A DNA stretch of 64,000 nucleotides from an uncultured Chloroflexia bacterium (GTDB lineage Bacteria > Chloroflexota > Limnocylindria > Limnocylindrales > CSP1-4). A model generated the notes under the pieces. That model searched no databases, was not told the DNA's origin, and was given only the letters and a program-made list of their open reading frames with translations. The position numbers were made by a program, and so were the translations under genes. The DNA lies in assembly GCA_963809595.1 (NCBI GenBank), contig CAWEKG010000002.1, positions 371,845-435,844 on the forward strand. The letters run 5' to 3'. This document shows positions 53,706 through 64,000 of this stretch, one piece after another. Position 1 is the first letter of the stretch. Every line of letters starts with the position of its first letter.

Positions 53706-54019
53706 CGGGTGCCCTCCCAAGGCTGACGAACTGGGCGCGACCACGCCCGGATAACTGCGGATCATGGGCGCCGGCGATGGGGCGTCAACGATCAATCCGC
53801 GGCCCAGGAGGCTGCGCGCGGGTCTCCAGGATTCCGTCTCGCGGCCGCAGTGCGCCGCGATCAGCGATGCTCTCAATCCGAGCAAACGACGCGTCCCCAG
53901 CCGACCTCCTGGACGTTGACGATCCGTCACGCCGGTTGCGCTGTCCCGCAAACGCGACGCCGGCTTCTAGGACGCTTCCGCGGGACTTCACTGGCCGCGC
54001 AGACGACGCACTTGCGTAA

Positions 54020-57776: not shown

Positions 57777-59963
57777 TCAGCGTCCGGCGAGGACCCGGAG
57801 CCGGGCCAGCGACGCCTCGACCGACGGATCGGTCCGGGTCGGGACGACGCGCTCCAGCAGGGTCCGGGCGACCTCGACCGGCGGCGCCGGCTGACGCTCG
57901 AGGAAGGTGACCAGGCGGTCGAGCGCGTCCGGTGCCATGTACAACCGCCGGCTATCGAACGAGACCCGGGAGGGGTCGATCTTGAAGACGTAGCTGTCGA
58001 GGGGTTCGTGGCCGGGGACCGGGAACGTCCAGTGGGCGACCTGCTCGATCCCCGTGCTCGAGGCAAGCGCGGGGATGATCGTGCCGGCAGCCGTCGACAG
58101 CCCGGTCGTGTAGACCCAGTACTGGACACCGCCCGCCCCCAGCTGGCGCTCCAGCCAGGCGGCTCGGTAGGCCTGATACTCGTTCACGTTGCGCGGGGCG
58201 GTGTCCACCGCGATCCAGTCGTCGGCCGGGTCCTCGCCGACCCGGATGAGACCCTCCGGCGCCGCCGGATCGGCGATCGCGATCCGCGCCCGGACCTGGA
58301 CCGCCTCGGCGCGGCCGCGCAGCCCGAGGGCCATCTCGTACCCCAGGAACGAGGGGAAGGCGACCTTCGCGCCCGGCGGGACGTTGTCCTGGAGCCAGCG
58401 CGTGACCGTCGTCACCGCGATGCCCCGTCCCAGGGAGTCGGGCTGGGTCCGCCGGACATGGACGGTCAGCGTGGCCGTGGCGACAACGAGCGCGATGACG
58501 AGCATCGCGTCGACCGCCAGGTCGGGCAGGCGGATCCGCTCACCTCGGCCGGTGCGTCGCACGAGCCAGGGAAGCGATCCGACGGCCGCCCCGACCACGG
58601 CCCCACCGATCGCGGCGCGGGTGGTCCAGCTCGGACCGACCATGTTCGCGGCTACCAGACCCGCCGCCAGCCCGATGAGACCACCGATCGGAACGAGCAG
58701 GAGCGGCGGCCGGACCACGACCAGGCGCTCGACGGCCCAGATCGCCCCGACCGAGGCGATCCCGACGAGGATCGCGATCTGGGCCAGGTAGTTCCGGGGT
58801 GGCTCGCCCACCGCGATCACCAGGAGGATGAGCGGCGCCGCGCACAGGGTCGCAAGGAAGAGGTCCGCGATCGCCTGGCGCTGGGCCGGGTCACGGAGCC
58901 GGAAGAAGGCCACCACACCCAGCAGGACGCCGACGATCCCGAACACCGCCACCGTCCGGAACGGCACGAGCCAGGTCGCCGCGTACGCCCGGAACTGGAC
59001 CAGGTCGATGAGGGGCCCTCCCTTGAGCCGGGCGGTCCGGGCGAAGACGAGGGTGAGCAGAACGAACCAGGCGAACGCCGACCCCCAGGCGAGGAACGCT
59101 CGGCCGTGGCGCTGCCAGAACGACGGCGCGGCCTCGGTGGCTCGGCGGGCGATGGCCCGCCCGGTCGAGCTCGCCGCCAACCGACCGGCGCTGAGCCCGA
59201 GGACGACCGCCAGGACGATTCCCGCCGTCAGGGGGAGCAGCGTCCAGACGGGCGAGTCGAGTCGGTAGACCCGGTGGCCCAGGACGGCGTACATCGCGAA
59301 CCACCACGACAGCCCGATCGAGGCCACCAGCAGGGTCCAGGCGCCGACCCGGGCGAGGATCACCCAGGGCCGGCGCCACAGGACACCGGCCACGAACGGG
59401 ATCGGCGCGAACGGGAGCGCCACCTCCTTGACCAGGAACGCGACGGCGAAGGTCAACCCCGCGGCGATCGCCCAGCGCGTCGAGCCGCGACGCACGGCCT
59501 CGAACCCGATGACGACGTAGAGGAGGGCGAGGGCCGCTGCCGGGACGTCGAGCCGGGCGGTCCGCGAGAGATCATGGAGGTACGGGATCGCCAGGATCCC
59601 GGCGGCGGCGAGGCCGCCCGCGGCCGGCCGGACTCGCCAGCCGAGCAGGCCACCCAGCCCGACGACGGCCGCCCCGCTGATCGCCCCGAGCAGTCGACCC
59701 CAGGCCCACGGATCGATCCCCAGCAATGCGTCGGGTGCCGCGAGGACCCCTGACCACAACGGTGAATGGGGGATGAAGGTGGCCCCGAAGACGGTCGTGG
59801 GACCGAGCCCGGCCCAGAGGCTGTAGCCGACCCCGAGGTACTTCTGTTCGTCGAAGCTCGGATAGAAGCCCGGCACCGCCAGCGCGAGAGCCAGGAAGAC
59901 CACGACGGAACTGCCGAGCACGACGGCGGACAGGCGGCGCTCGGAGGGCAGGTCAAGAGGCAC
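57777..59963 (-). CDS. ArnT/PMT-like GT-C glycosyltransferase
   Basis: FDE loop, HSPL, ARLD, FLVKE, many TM helices. Confidence 0.8.
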   Translation of the reverse strand: MPLDLPSERRLSAVVLGSSVVVFLALALAVPGFYPSFDEQKYLGVGYSLWAGLGPTTVFGATFIPHSPLWSGVLAAPDALLGIDPWAWGRLLGAISGAAVVGLGGLLGWRVRPAAGGLAAAGILAIPYLHDLSRTARLDVPAAALALLYVVIGFEAVRRGSTRWAIAAGLTFAVAFLVKEVALPFAPIPFVAGVLWRRPWVILARVGAWTLLVASIGLSWWFAMYAVLGHRVYRLDSPVWTLLPLTAGIVLAVVLGLSAGRLAASSTGRAIARRATEAAPSFWQRHGRAFLAWGSAFAWFVLLTLVFARTARLKGGPLIDLVQFRAYAATWLVPFRTVAVFGIVGVLLGVVAFFRLRDPAQRQAIADLFLATLCAAPLILLVIAVGEPPRNYLAQIAILVGIASVGAIWAVERLVVVRPPLLLVPIGGLIGLAAGLVAANMVGPSWTTRAAIGGAVVGAAVGSLPWLVRRTGRGERIRLPDLAVDAMLVIALVVATATLTVHVRRTQPDSLGRGIAVTTVTRWLQDNVPPGAKVAFPSFLGYEMALGLRGRAEAVQVRARIAIADPAAPEGLIRVGEDPADDWIAVDTAPRNVNEYQAYRAAWLERQLGAGGVQYWVYTTGLSTAAGTIIPALASSTGIEQVAHWTFPVPGHEPLDSYVFKIDPSRVSFDSRRLYMAPDALDRLVTFLERQPAPPVEVARTLLERVVPTRTDPSVEASLARLRVLAGR

Positions 59964-59992
59964 GGTCGGCCGTATGGTAGCGCCCGTCGGGG

Positions 59993-60384
59993 GGGACAAC
60001 GAAACGCCCGAAGGAACCACTCGGTCCGTCGGTCCGTCTCCGCCGATGCAAGCACCTGCGACTCGGTCTCCGGCGAGCCCCGGTCCGTAGCTTTCGCCGC
60101 TGATGCAAGCACCTGCGACGCCGCTCTCGGTCCGTCATGGCCCCTTCGGGCAAGACCTACAGTACGGCCCCGTCGTCGTCCCTGGCTACGGGGTTATCCA
60201 CGAACTTGGGGTCCGCTCCGAGGAATCTGCGCTCGTTCTCCACGGTCCGTCCACGAGGCCGGGTCCGGGGACCCGGGCGGGGAGCTCGCGATCAGGGCTC
60301 CAGGGGCCACTCGGCGGGTTCGAGCAGGATCGGCAGGCCACGCCGGTCGAGGACGAGGGGGGTCGCCGTTCCGGCGGCGGGGGG
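59993..60384. repeat. ~390-bp direct repeat, copy 1 (copy 2 at 60721-61110)
   Basis: Near-identical at offset 728; differs near 60271-60280 vs 60999-61007; includes the 3' end of the 61019-61594 gene. Confidence 0.95.
59996..60151 (-). ncRNA. Putative structured sRNA, long form, copy 1
   Basis: TACTGT -10; 5' GCCCGAAGGGGCCA pairs with 3' UGGUUCCUUCGGGC plus U-rich tail; two CUUG hairpins; four ACGGACCG. Confidence 0.7.
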
Positions 60385-60385
60385 C

Positions 60386-60482
60386 ACAACGAAACGCCCG
60401 AAGGAACCTCCGGTCCGGCCGTCGAGTCCGCTGATGTCGCCACCTGCGATCTCAAGACGTCGGTCCCTTGGCCCCTTCGGGC
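60386..60482 (-). ncRNA. Putative structured sRNA, short paralog
   Basis: Same promoter, closing stem and tail; one hairpin with GCGA tetraloop; two GGACCG. Confidence 0.7.
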
Positions 60483-60524
60483 AAGACCTACAGTACGCCG
60501 GAGCGACCGGTGGCCGCTACCGGG

Positions 60525-60586
60525 TTATCCACGAGCTTCCCTGACAACAGGCCGTTTCTCGGGTGGTTATCCACCGCTCGCCCACC
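60525..60586. promoter_or_regulatory. DnaA-box-like array upstream of an sRNA promoter (equivalents at 60194-60255 and 60922-60983)
   Basis: TTATCCACG 60525, TTATCCACC 60567, TCGCCCACC 60578. Confidence 0.6.
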
Positions 60587-60723
60587 GAACCGCGCTCGAG
60601 GTCGATCGGGGATGGTCGGGGCCCGGCCAGGCCGGCCCGGACCAGGGTCCGATCGGCGGCGCGCCTGGACGGTCGCCCCATCCCCTCCCCCGACGGGCGC
60701 CCCCGCCCGCCCCGTCGGCGGGG

Positions 60724-60879
60724 ACAACGAAACGCCCGAAGGAACCACTCGGTCCGTCGGTCCGTCTCCGCCGATGCAAGCACCTGCGACTCGGTCTCCG
60801 GCGAGCCCCGGTCCGTAGCTTTCGCCGCTGATGCAAGCACCTGCGACGCCGCTCTCGGTCCGTCATGGCCCCTTCGGGC
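60724..60879 (-). ncRNA. Putative structured sRNA, long form, copy 2
   Basis: Identical to 59996-60151. Confidence 0.7.
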
Positions 60880-61018
60880 AAGACCTACAGTACGGCCCCG
60901 TCGTCGTCCCTGGCTACGGGGTTATCCACGAACTTGGGGTCCGCTCCGAGGAATCTGCGCTCGTTCTCCACGGTCCGTCCACGAGGCCGGGTCCGGGGAC
61001 TCGTTCGGGAGCTCGCGA

Positions 61019-61594
61019 TCAGGGCTCCAGGGGCCACTCGGCGGGTTCGAGCAGGATCGGCAGGCCACGCCGGTCGAGGACGAGGGGGGTCGCCGTTCCG
61101 GCGGCGGGGGGGTCGAAGGCCAGGTCCCAGGTCGAGACACCGGCTCTCGACACGAGGACCGCCACCGGCGCCGGGCGGAGGTCGCTCCCGATCCGGATCC
61201 CCTCGAGGCGGGCCCGGGCACCGGACCACAGCGCGGCCGCGGACGGCCCCATGACCGCGGCATCGACCACCGGCGATCGGTCCACCACGAGAAGATGGCT
61301 GTCCGACCAGGGGAAGGTGAGGTGACGGACCCCGGCGGTCGTGACCACGTTCCCGTGGAGGGTGGTGGCGTCGCCCGAAGGATGGACGGTCAGCAGACCG
61401 GCCCCGCTGGCGATCTCGAGTCGGCCGATCCGACCATCCGGGGCGAGCTCGAGCAGGAGCGATCGGACGACTCGTCCGCGCCGGGTCAGCAGCTCCCGCC
61501 AGCGCCGGCCGCGTCGCCCATCGGCGAGCGACCAGGTGACCGCCTCGCCGGTCGCCAGGCGGCCAGTGCCGGCCAATCGAAGGGGGTCGGCCAT
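61019..61594 (-). CDS. Hypothetical protein downstream of hflX
   Basis: ATG 8 nt after the hflX stop; MADPLR...WPLEP. Confidence 0.7.
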   Translation of the reverse strand: MADPLRLAGTGRLATGEAVTWSLADGRRGRRWRELLTRRGRVVRSLLLELAPDGRIGRLEIASGAGLLTVHPSGDATTLHGNVVTTAGVRHLTFPWSDSHLLVVDRSPVVDAAVMGPSAAALWSGARARLEGIRIGSDLRPAPVAVLVSRAGVSTWDLAFDPPAAGTATPLVLDRRGLPILLEPAEWPLEP

Positions 61595-61602
61595 CGGTCG
61601 GG

Positions 61603-62898
61603 TCAGACTTCCGCGGCGTGCCGGGCGACCGCCTCGAGCTCGCCGGCCAGCGCCGGAGCGACCCGGCCGCGGACATGGACACCGTCGCCGCGATAGTCGA
61701 TGTCGACCGACCCTCGCTCGCGGACCCGGGCCAGCAGGTCGCCGGCCGCGTAGGGCACGTCGACCTCGATGTCGACCCAGAGCGAGGAGAGGACGGCCGC
61801 CAGCTGGGTCCGGAGCGCGTCGAGGCCGAACCCCGTGACCGCGCTGATCGGGACCGTGCCCCCGACGATCGGTGTCGGTCGGTCGCCGTCGAGGGCGGCC
61901 GGGTCGACAAGATCGGTCTTGTTGCGGGCCACCAGCCGGGGCTTCTCGCCCGCGCCGAGCTCGTCGAGGACCGCCTGGACGGTGGCCCGGTGCTCCGTCG
62001 CGTGGGGGTCGGAGGCGTCGATGACTTCGAGAAGGACGTCGGCCCGGTTGACCTCCTCGAGGGTCGCTCGGAACGCGTCGACGAGCTGGTGCGGGAGCTT
62101 GTGGATGAACCCCACCGTGTCGGTCACGATCGCGGTCTGCCCGTCCCCCAGGCGGACCTGCCGGCTCGTCGGGTCGAGGGTGGCGAAGAGCTTGTCCTCG
62201 GCCAGCGCGACCTCGCTTCCGACGAGGGCGTTGAGGAGGGTCGACTTCCCGGCGTTGGTGTAGCCGACGATGCCGACCGTGGGCATCAGCCCGCGATCGC
62301 GCCCCCGGGCGGCGGTGGCCCGCTGCTGGCGGACCTGCTCCACCCGCTCCTTCATCTTCTTGATCCGCTCCCGGACGATCCGCCGGTCGGTTTCGAGCTG
62401 AGACTCGCCGGGGCCCCGGGTGCCGATCCCGCCGCCGGTCCGCGACAGGTGGGTCCACATCCGGGTGAGCCGCGGGAGCTGGTATTCGAGCTGGGCGAGC
62501 TCCACCTGGAGACGACCTTCGTGGGTCCGGGCGTGGAGGGCGAAGATGTCGAGGATGAGCCGGCTCCGGTCGATGACCTTGACCTTGAGCAGCTCTTCGA
62601 GGGCTCGCTGCTGGGCCGGTGAGAGCTCGTCGTCGGCGATGAGCACGTCGAAGCCGGTCTCGCTCTTCGCGGCGACCAGCTCGGCTGCCTTGCCCTTGCC
62701 CACGTACCAGTTCGGGTCGACGTGGCGTCGGTTCTGCCATTCGGCACCCACCACGTCGGCACCGGCGGTCAGGGCCAGGTTGGCCAGCTCGGCCAGGGAG
62801 TCCTGGGCGGTCCAGCCGTCCTCGGTGCCGGTGTCGACCGCGAGCAGGAAGGCCCGCTCGACGGGCGGAGCGAGATCGATGAGGTCGGAACGGGTCAT
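61603..62898 (-). CDS. hflX: GTPase HflX
   Basis: LQVELAQL, RGPGESQLETDRR, GYTNAGKST, LFATLD, DTVGF. Confidence 0.97.
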   Translation of the reverse strand: MTRSDLIDLAPPVERAFLLAVDTGTEDGWTAQDSLAELANLALTAGADVVGAEWQNRRHVDPNWYVGKGKAAELVAAKSETGFDVLIADDELSPAQQRALEELLKVKVIDRSRLILDIFALHARTHEGRLQVELAQLEYQLPRLTRMWTHLSRTGGGIGTRGPGESQLETDRRIVRERIKKMKERVEQVRQQRATAARGRDRGLMPTVGIVGYTNAGKSTLLNALVGSEVALAEDKLFATLDPTSRQVRLGDGQTAIVTDTVGFIHKLPHQLVDAFRATLEEVNRADVLLEVIDASDPHATEHRATVQAVLDELGAGEKPRLVARNKTDLVDPAALDGDRPTPIVGGTVPISAVTGFGLDALRTQLAAVLSSLWVDIEVDVPYAAGDLLARVRERGSVDIDYRGDGVHVRGRVAPALAGELEAVARHAAEV

Positions 62899-62963: not shown

Positions 62964-63911
62964 TCAGCCCGCGGCGAGGAGCTCCTCGACGATCCGGAAG
63001 GCCGCCTCATCCGCGGGGCCGTCGGTGACGTCCAGCCAGGTCATCGCGGTCTCCCGGCGGAACCAGGTCGCCTGCCGTTTCGCGAACGCGACGTTGCGGT
63101 GGGTGTCGAGCGAGATCGCGCCCTCCAGACCGATACCGCCGTCGAGCACGGCCCAGGCTTCGCGATAGCCGATCGCCGAGAAGGCCGGCAGGCCGGGGTC
63201 GTAAAGGGCCCGGAGCGAGGCCGCTTCGTCGAGCAGACCGGCAGCGAACTGTGCCCGCGCCCGGGTCGCGAGCCAGGCCCGGTGGACGGTGGGGTCCACC
63301 CGAAGCCCGAGCCAGGCGATGGGGCCGGGGTACCCCCGGGGCTCCGGCATCGGGGCGTCGCCGAGTAGGGTCGCGATCTCGAGGGCGCGGACCACCCGGC
63401 GCGGGTTCTTCTGGTCGATGACGTCGGCGCGCCCGGGGACGATCGCCCGGAGCCGCTCGACCAGCGCGGGCAGGCCGTCCCGCTCGAGGTCGACCTCGAG
63501 GGTCGTGCGCAGGACCGAGTCGTGGGGCAGGGCGTCCACGTCCATGCCCTGTCCGACAGCCCGAAGATAGAGCCCGGTCCCGCCTACGAGCAGCCCGATA
63601 CGACCCTCGACCGCGAGACGGGCGAGCACCCGATCGATCTCTCGGACGAAGTCCGCCACGGTGAACGGCTGGTCCGGATCGACCAGGTCGAGACCGTGAT
63701 GGGGCACCCGCGCCCGCTCCCCCGGGGTGGCTTTGGCCGTCCCGATGTCGAGGCCCCGGTAGACCTGGCGCGAGTCGGCCGAGATGATCTCGGCGGTCAC
63801 ACCGCGCCCGGCGAGCCGCTCGGCCAGGCGGATGGCGAGACCGGTCTTGCCCGTCGCCGTCGCTCCGCCGATGACGACGAGGGGCGGTCGCGGTGCGGCG
63901 TCCGTGCTCAG
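62964..63911 (-). CDS. miaA: tRNA dimethylallyltransferase
   Basis: GATATGKT, SADSRQVY, DIGTAK, VGGTGLY, AIGY, AKRQATWF; probable CTG start. Confidence 0.95.
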   Translation of the reverse strand: MSTDAAPRPPLVVIGGATATGKTGLAIRLAERLAGRGVTAEIISADSRQVYRGLDIGTAKATPGERARVPHHGLDLVDPDQPFTVADFVREIDRVLARLAVEGRIGLLVGGTGLYLRAVGQGMDVDALPHDSVLRTTLEVDLERDGLPALVERLRAIVPGRADVIDQKNPRRVVRALEIATLLGDAPMPEPRGYPGPIAWLGLRVDPTVHRAWLATRARAQFAAGLLDEAASLRALYDPGLPAFSAIGYREAWAVLDGGIGLEGAISLDTHRNVAFAKRQATWFRRETAMTWLDVTDGPADEAAFRIVEELLAAG

Positions 63912-64000
63912 GACAGCCTGCCCCGGAGGGCGTACGGGCCAGCATGATCGACCCGGACCTCGACGAGCCGGCCGATGAGCGACGCCGGGCCTGTCAGGTG
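63908..64000 (-). CDS. miaB: C-terminal TRAM domain, probably MiaB (partial)
   Basis: LIGRLVEVRVDHAGPYALRG*, directly upstream of miaA. Confidence 0.7.
   Translation of the reverse strand, partial: HLTGPASLIGRLVEVRVDHAGPYALRGRLS

Follow-up and report, generated by a model that had tools for sequence, protein, structure and literature searches.

Small-RNA genes downstream of miaA-hflX

The 64,000-nucleotide stretch considered here (the window; contig CAWEKG010000002.1, positions 371,845 to 435,844, from an uncultured Chloroflexia bacterium of the class Limnocylindria) carries on its minus strand, downstream of miaA-hflX, three independently transcribed genes that belong to an uncatalogued family of structured small RNAs of the Limnocylindria and stand in the order long, short, long. 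Each of these genes has a promoter preceded by short sites resembling the box recognized by the replication initiator DnaA. The interval 59,983-61,111 is non-coding on both strands apart from the 3' end of an open reading frame (ORF) of 190 amino acids (aa). The RNA genes and their promoter elements, in window coordinates, are as follows.

59983..60384, strand not applicable: direct repeat, first copy (second copy 60711-61111)
59996..60157, minus: long small RNA, copy A, from sequence and fold; 5' arm GCCCGAAGGGGCC from 60151, 3' arm UGGUUCCUUCGGGC to 60006, then the tail GUUUCGUUGU
60159..60188, minus: core promoter A; -10 at 60159-60164, 18-nucleotide spacer, TAGCCA at 60183-60188
60194..60202, minus: proximal DnaA-box-like 9-mer A, CGTGGATAA, 5 nucleotides upstream of the -35 hexamer
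60236..60255, minus: distal double box A, CGTGGACGG, 2 bp, CGTGGAGAA; 42 bp upstream of the proximal box
60386..60488, minus: short small RNA; 5' arm from 60482, 3' arm to 60396
60490..60586, minus: short-RNA promoter; -10 at 60490-60495, TAGCGG at 60514-60519, proximal CGTGGATAA at 60525-60533
60567-60586, minus: distal pair of the short-RNA promoter, from sequence; GGTGGGCGA, 2 bp, GGTGGATAA
60724..60885, minus: long small RNA, copy B, repeat partner of copy A
60887..60983, minus: promoter B; -10 at 60887-60892, -35-like hexamer at 60911-60916, proximal box at 60922-60930, distal double box at 60964-60983

The long copies A and B are held by a 727/728-bp direct repeat (99% and 100% identity) that contains the long RNA with its promoter, along with the final ~93 nucleotides (nt) of the upstream 190-aa ORF. 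Because both lie within this repeat, agreement between their two promoters is uninformative; the informative comparisons are those of the long with the short gene, of two further paralogues in the genome, and of relatives.

Promoter architecture

All three promoters have the -10 hexamer TACTGT (60159-60164, 60490-60495 and 60887-60892, minus strand) and, 18 nt upstream of it, a weak -35-like hexamer (TAGCCA or TAGCGG) that lies 5 nt downstream of the proximal box. The proximal boxes read TTATCCACG on the forward strand at 60194, 60525 and 60922, corresponding to CGTGGATAA on the minus strand, and match the DnaA-box consensus TTATCCACA at eight of nine positions. Second boxes follow 42 bp beyond the proximal ones, TTCTCCACG at 60236 and 60964 and TTATCCACC at 60567, and since a third CCAC core lies 11 bp past the second box, each distal element consists of two 9-mers separated by 2 bp. 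The cluster thus comprises nine box-like 9-mers within 0.83 kb.

The word TTATCCAC occurs four times in the window, always within the small-RNA locus, against an expectation of 0.12, and four occurrences were reached in none of 100 shuffles. The 3.12-Mb genome, with a G+C content of 72%, contains twelve, five of them at small-RNA promoters. An earlier note made from the DNA letters of the window had placed these boxes, had described them as identically phased in long and short paralogs with diverged spacers, and had scored the best sites at 8/9 of the DnaA consensus. All of its box coordinates hold, at a frequency far above chance; the common -10 TACTGT, the TAGC of the -35 hexamer and the box distances were recovered, as was the 8/9 match for the proximal TTATCCACG.

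Copies elsewhere in the genome and in relatives

A fourth gene of the family is found on contig C1, flanked by moaA and a purine-nucleoside-phosphorylase gene, and a fifth on contig C4, the latter recovered with a covariance model for which only the RNA was used. Their promoters comprise the proximal box, 5-6 nt, TTGACC, 18 nt and TACCGT, together with upstream boxes. The composite pattern of a box, 4-6 nt, T[TA]Gnnn, 16-19 nt and TAnnnT occurs exactly six times in the genome, namely at the five small-RNA promoters and at the promoter of rsmG/gidB. Between the C1-type small RNA and the purine-nucleoside-phosphorylase gene a conserved element, GACCGGCATCCCGGTGTCGGTAC, is present in several genera, without a match in Rfam.

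The family is widespread among relatives. The short unit gave BLAST (Basic Local Alignment Search Tool) matches in all 18 genomes of the genus, in 23 of 24 of its family (f1) and in none of 16 genomes of the small-genome sister family f2. Among 151 genomes of the class, the RNA-only model gave matches in 40 of 44 genomes of f1 and, with weak scores, in 23 of 50 of family f4 (a count that takes in two unpublished genomes), and none in f2 (0/6), f3 (0/49) or f5 (0/1). The best match of the model is the short RNA of this locus, at 94.3 bits.

The position of the proximal box is kept along with the RNA. Within 24 genomes, GTGGA[T/C/G]AA stands at -50 (±1) from the RNA 5' motif in 43 of 44 distinct promoters, the exception being CGTTGAAAA. 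The layout is also kept in 19 of 19 promoters of eight further genera, in 12 of 13 best hits of the RNA-only model from three genera (exception, CGTTGATAA), and in nine of ten weak hits examined in f4, where the tenth appears unrelated. When these overlapping sets are combined, they comprise 79 distinct promoters of two Limnocylindria families, and 76 of these have a GTGGA core 50 (±2) nt upstream of the RNA 5' motif. The next core upstream of the proximal one follows at 41-43 bp in 59 of the 76, at 29-33 bp in 16 and at 20 bp in one; a distal double box, with cores 11-12 bp apart, is present in 53, and the proximal box is CGTGGATAA itself in 50. Information content is highest at the distal pair, at AAG.TCGTGGATAA, at the -35 and at the -10, and there is none in the spacers. 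The contrast between kept boxes and diverged spacers is clear despite the kinship of the genomes.

This pattern bears on the simplest account of the shared boxes, namely that they are a functionless by-product of gene duplication. The two long copies do lie in a repeat of 99-100% identity, as such an account would have it, but the boxes and their distances have been kept while the spacers diverged, in two families and across 79 distinct promoters, and the same design stands at the unrelated rsmG promoter. The account is already contradicted by the conservation pattern, and its probability is negligible.

The rsmG/gidB promoter and other box sites

In this genome the design recurs at just one further promoter, which drives rsmG/gidB via a conserved leader of ~250 nt. 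Of 29 rsmG loci examined, the leader start could be anchored in 18, with no anchor in the other 11. In all 18 anchored loci of the family the promoter reads [C/G]GTGGATAA, 5 nt, TTGACx, 17 nt, TA[A/G]CGT, with an inverted box ~30 bp upstream. In this genome the promoter and leader occupy C3:36766-37100, and the leader is without a match in Rfam. Both rsmG and dnaN are split over at least two frames in the assembly, probably by sequencing frameshifts. In Pseudomonas aeruginosa, the gidAB-parAB promoter is preceded by boxes that DnaA binds and that expression requires, since it is impaired by deletions in this region (PMC13438810).

Two further box sites were noted. At C2:791951-791983, three phased boxes (TTGTCCACC, GTCCACC and TTATCCACA) stand upstream of a minus-strand sequence that resembles a promoter, TACCCC-17-TACGAT, followed by a hairpin, CCUUCGGCG...CGCCGAAGG, in a gap without a clear gene; this site may be another box-gated RNA. 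At C3:505005-505034, two perfect TTATCCACA boxes 21 bp apart flank TAGACT, upstream of a LytR_cpsA_psr gene.

Structure and expression of the small RNA

In the predicted fold the ends of the RNA pair as a helix of ~14 bp, GCCCGAAGGGGCC with GGUUCCUUCGGGC, which is followed by a U-rich tail. Across 75 distinct RNAs, positions of this closing helix are paired in 62-75, and three of them show compensatory changes; at one, for example, G-C is found in 67 and U-A in 7, with G-A or U-C in 0. Within the central hairpin, exchanges of A-U to U-A occur in 6 of 19 sequences. The interior of the RNA holds one to five copies of a module (GGUGCUUGCAUCAGCGG in this genome, GGAGAUUGCAUCAAGG in f4). There were no Rfam matches at gathering score in the window, neither to 6S or Y RNA nor to any other family, and a search of 59900-61100 with E values up to 10 returned as its sole match a chance hit of 14.8 bits on the opposite strand.

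The RNA is represented in public RNA libraries. Fourteen public runs contained 4-8% of the words sampled from a 1,251-bp stretch, and contigs of four RNA-library runs were aligned to the locus. In three runs from three studies (one freshwater, two sediments), contigs cover copy A from 60006, 60009 or 60010 to 60140, 60141 or 60144, and copy B from 60734 or 60737 to 60868, 60869 or 60872, with a summed word depth over the long RNA of up to ~2,500. The promoter and box region has zero contig cover in these three runs. Since cover is confined to the long RNA, short molecules that end inside the closing helix are abundant in the RNA libraries. Letters resembling adapters, which we take to be Illumina adapters, abut both ends of the cover directly; in two runs they fit a minus-strand RNA if the libraries were dUTP-stranded, an observation not used as evidence. 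The contig ends fall within the closing helix (5' at 60144 or 60140, 3' at 60006-60010) and not at the predicted start or tail, which may reflect processing or trimming to the helix, or a library effect. For the short RNA, a fourth run yielded one low-depth contig from a relative.

The RNA is real, a stand-alone small-RNA gene with its own promoter, a covarying structure, a terminator-like end and a presence in RNA libraries. A reading of the locus as encoding a small protein was rejected, as the long form's ATG is not conserved and the reading frame is disrupted by indels in relatives. Several known RNA classes were considered as well. In this 80%-complete genome neither CsrA (PF02599) nor Ro60/TROVE (PF05731) was found, and both a sponge of the CsrB/RsmZ type and, also for want of an Rfam match, a bacterial Y RNA were set aside; Hfq was likewise not found in the same assembly. 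Because the end helix is invariant and the module number variable, we lean towards a regulator that would act by binding protein or by base-pairing at multiple sites. A genome search for complements of the RNA modules gave noisy hits only, and no target is claimed. The word CCGATGCTAGCACCGGG, which complements the small-RNA module except at one central base, was seen at at least four places (C1:521733, C3:149971, C4:169945 and C1:508510).

DnaA as candidate binder

The earlier note had assigned the sites to small-RNA promoters under the control of DnaA or, alternatively, to a datA-like titration locus, and had named conservation of the box spacing in relatives and location of the true replication origin (oriC) as checks. 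That the sites belong to small-RNA promoters is supported by the promoter layout, the covariation and the RNA-library contigs; both boxes and spacing proved to be kept in orthologous and paralogous loci of two families (76/79), contrary to the lack of conservation that the note had named as refuting it; and oriC most likely lies in the dnaA-dnaN spacer on C3, a contig other than that of the small-RNA locus. From the sequence evidence, the probability that DnaA binds the boxes of the small-RNA promoters and so controls these RNAs is put at roughly 60%.

The dnaA gene occupies positions 97435-98961 of contig C3 on the minus strand, followed by dnaN fragments at 95837-96945 and then by recF. The 480-bp spacer between dnaA and dnaN contains TGTGGATAA, GGTGGAGAA and TGTGGACAA at spacings of 21-22 bp, then five inverted xxGTCCACx boxes, then a stretch of 60% A+T, and is the probable oriC. 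This A+T stretch (spacer interval C3:97080-97434) includes GATGACGTTCTAAGATA, conserved in 14 of 22 relatives. Similar sets of boxes are present after dnaA at all 16 loci of the genus and at all 7 loci examined in the sister family, counts from which two incomplete loci are excluded. An unbiased count of 7-mers in the 450 bp after dnaA at 22 loci returned words containing or overlapping GTGGA as the most enriched, by 59- to 288-fold (CGGTGGA 288-fold, TGTGGAC 150-fold, GTGGATA 118-fold, TGGATAA 98-fold).

The genome, at 80% completeness, gives a single match to DnaA and a single match to Bac_DnaA_C, and a separate protein consisting of DnaA domain IV was not found in it. When domain IV of the protein is compared with that of Escherichia coli (1J1V), R399, D433, H434 and H439 are kept and T435 is replaced by S; these positions, together with P423, are ones that we take to have roles in DNA contact. 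The DnaA of E. coli prefers pairs of boxes 2-3 bp apart, as found in 15 of 16 bound regions in the portion of the study available (PMC11317965). The distal pairs of the small-RNA promoters have such a spacing, of 2 bp; the proximal box stands alone. Indirect support for a link to DnaA comes from the words shared with the dnaA-dnaN spacer, from the 2-bp distal spacing and from the rsmG/gidB promoter of the same design.

A number of observations weigh against control by DnaA, or limit the force of the evidence for it. In domain IV, P423 has changed to L and T435 to S relative to E. coli. The proximal site is single, and E. coli DnaA mostly needs pairs, as far as the accessible text of that study goes (PMC11317965). 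The base beside the core is C, not the consensus T, in 60 of 76 proximal boxes (CGTGGA.AA in the box types listed), and AAG.T just upstream of the proximal box is conserved too; these features could indicate another factor, or a tuned affinity. At the loci examined, the region upstream of dnaA itself showed no boxes. The relatives are kin, and counts among them overstate independent support. The RNA-library contigs carry no strand information, and those of three runs give no cover of the short RNA, which is itself no evidence of silence. GC skew in this genome is too weak to locate an origin or terminus, and the copies of the family are scattered around the chromosome in single-contig genomes, so that position gives no general link to the replication cycle.

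Some of these features would be expected if the boxes were bound by a different, lineage-specific transcription factor, with a site of about AAGxTCGTGGATAA that merely looks like a DnaA box, and if the small RNAs were the regulon of that factor. Conservation beyond the 9-mer (AAG.T), a first base that is mostly C and not T, and the single proximal site all speak for such a factor. Yet the same words dominate the dnaA-dnaN spacer beside an A+T-rich element, the spacing of the distal pairs (2 bp) is typical of DnaA, the design recurs at just one further promoter, that of rsmG/gidB, and Bac_DnaA_C has one match in the assembly, whose completeness is given above. A different factor is accordingly regarded as rather unlikely, though it is the most serious of the alternatives.

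Chromosomal position

The GC skew of this genome is weak (1-4%) and noisy, with a cumulative minimum at ~C2:405 kb, or ~33,000 in the window, and 20 samples of one single-contig genome showed no clean pattern. In that single-contig genome, of 3,116,973 bp, dnaA lies at 750 kb and the cluster linked to hflX at 2,283.5-2,287.7 kb (C1:2283516-2287705), which is 49% of the chromosome away from dnaA and near its antipode; other copies in that genome lie at 24% and 11%. Copies are scattered in two other single-contig genomes. A location at the terminus is possible for the hflX-linked cluster but is not a rule of the family. The only A+T-richer intergenic stretch, a candidate region for a dif-like site, lies near 54,012.

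The skew minimum lies 27 kb from the small-RNA locus, and might be taken to mean that the locus is a replication origin or part of one. Against this, the skew is weak and noisy, 59,900-61,100 contains no A+T-rich stretch, and the same module occurs at five dispersed places; moreover, the dnaA-dnaN spacer on C3 has eight boxes and the 60% A+T element, and the small-RNA locus is on a contig other than that of dnaA. An origin at this locus is therefore considered highly improbable.

In E. coli, the locus datA inactivates DnaA, relying on the integration host factor IHF and on hydrolysis of DnaA-ATP. The cluster described here could by analogy be a titration site or a counterpart of datA that serves mainly to bind up or inactivate DnaA, with the promoters among the boxes being incidental. 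Nine box-like 9-mers in 0.83 kb make it the densest of the listed clusters other than the dnaA-dnaN spacer, the family often has tandem copies, and the cluster of one single-contig genome is 49% of the chromosome away from dnaA. The boxes, however, keep constant distances to the -35, the -10 and the start of the RNA, also at rsmG and where a copy is single and dispersed, which fits promoter control; the function of datA requires IHF and hydrolysis of DnaA-ATP; and copies are scattered in other genomes. Titration or inactivation as the main role of the locus is improbable, more so than a lineage-specific factor. A datA-like role is compatible with promoter control and not an alternative to it.

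Proposed mechanism

The module shared by the promoters consists, from upstream to downstream, of a pair of DnaA-box-like 9-mers 2 bp apart, three or four helical turns, the near-consensus CGTGGATAA, 5 nt, the -35, 17-18 nt, the -10 TAnnnT, ~7 nt, and the RNA. Most likely, DnaA would sit on the proximal box and on the distal pair, which face the same side of the helix, probably cooperatively, and, being directly upstream of the -35, would set the use of the promoter by RNA polymerase. Because the -35 hexamers of the genus are weak and the RNA is abundant, activation is favoured over repression, and is the more likely sign of control to judge from these promoters. The output of small RNA would then track the amount or the activity of DnaA, and a by-product would be the holding of DnaA by the nine boxes in 0.83 kb.

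A broader proposal can be put forward tentatively: in the Limnocylindria, the main transcriptional output of DnaA might be, in place of protein genes, multi-copy modular small RNAs that, through a fixed three-box switch, broadcast the level of DnaA-ATP post-transcriptionally, and the tandem cluster might double as a sink for DnaA, its copy number varying with replication. This is considered possible but less likely than not, with clearly less confidence than binding of DnaA to the boxes.

Relation to known systems

As a transcription factor, DnaA is known to act on a few protein genes. Among the DnaA-regulated promoters outside oriC, those of P. aeruginosa gidAB-parAB (p1; PMC13438810) and of E. 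coli dnaA and nrdAB (PMC8203912) resemble the promoters described here, as far as the consulted portions of these sources go, in having boxes directly upstream of a sigma-70-type promoter, and this lineage has a promoter of like design ahead of rsmG/gidB. Unlike these promoters of protein genes, the ones found here serve five small-RNA genes, in a layout fixed across the class. The double DnaA boxes of E. coli, as presented in the accessible sections of PMC11317965, share with the distal 9-mers their common orientation and spacing of 2 bp. The strongest box here, the proximal one, is in contrast single, and the candidate sites are known from sequence only. The likeness to datA extends to a cluster of DnaA boxes away from oriC, but here the boxes are tied to promoter geometry.

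Sibling small RNAs that share an upstream activator site are familiar from Qrr1-5, RsmX/Y/Z and GlmY/GlmZ. Like these, the family described here consists of paralogous genes with their own promoters, the same factor site at a fixed distance and a variable number of modules; it differs in that the presumed factor is the replication initiator and that the genome, as assembled to 80%, yielded no gene for CsrA, Hfq or Ro60. In Caulobacter, CcnA is reportedly a cell-cycle non-coding RNA. For the non-coding RNAs of Caulobacter, DnaA sites upstream were predicted by matrix scan only, in the part of the source available (PMC5988900). These cell-cycle RNAs are likewise non-coding and viewed as wired to the cell cycle's master regulators; as described in the same portion of text, they are single genes of one species, while the site position here is conserved across two families. 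In the literature searched, no small RNA was shown to be controlled by DnaA, the matrix predictions in Caulobacter, as far as that source was accessible, being the only instance (PMC5988900). The accessible text of a 2021 review of DnaA as a transcription factor contains zero occurrences of sRNA, small RNA or non-coding (PMC8203912).

If control by DnaA is correct, an abundant, class-wide family of small RNAs would directly link the initiation of replication to RNA-based regulation, in a large and uncultured group of soil and freshwater bacteria. The probable oriC of the lineage and its vocabulary of DnaA boxes have been located as well. The reading can be tested computationally, by comparing RNA abundance with replication indices in paired metagenomes and metatranscriptomes.

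Neighbouring genes and evolution of the repeat

The genes upstream of the small-RNA cluster in the window are the following.

61019..61591, minus: ORF of 190 aa between hflX and the RNA cluster; G+C at third codon positions (GC3) 0.86
61603..62898, minus: hflX (GTPase); Pfam GTP-bdg_N, GTP-bdg_M and MMR_HSR1
62964..63998, minus: miaA (tRNA isopentenyltransferase), continuing past the window end; Pfam IPPT, 4.5e-59

The 190-aa ORF at 61019-61591 has no Pfam match. The order of long, short and long RNA genes is kept throughout the genus. The two long copies score identically inside each genome yet differ from genome to genome, which suggests concerted evolution of the ~0.4-kb direct repeat. In this genome and in one relative, the repeat takes in the 3' end of the upstream ORF.

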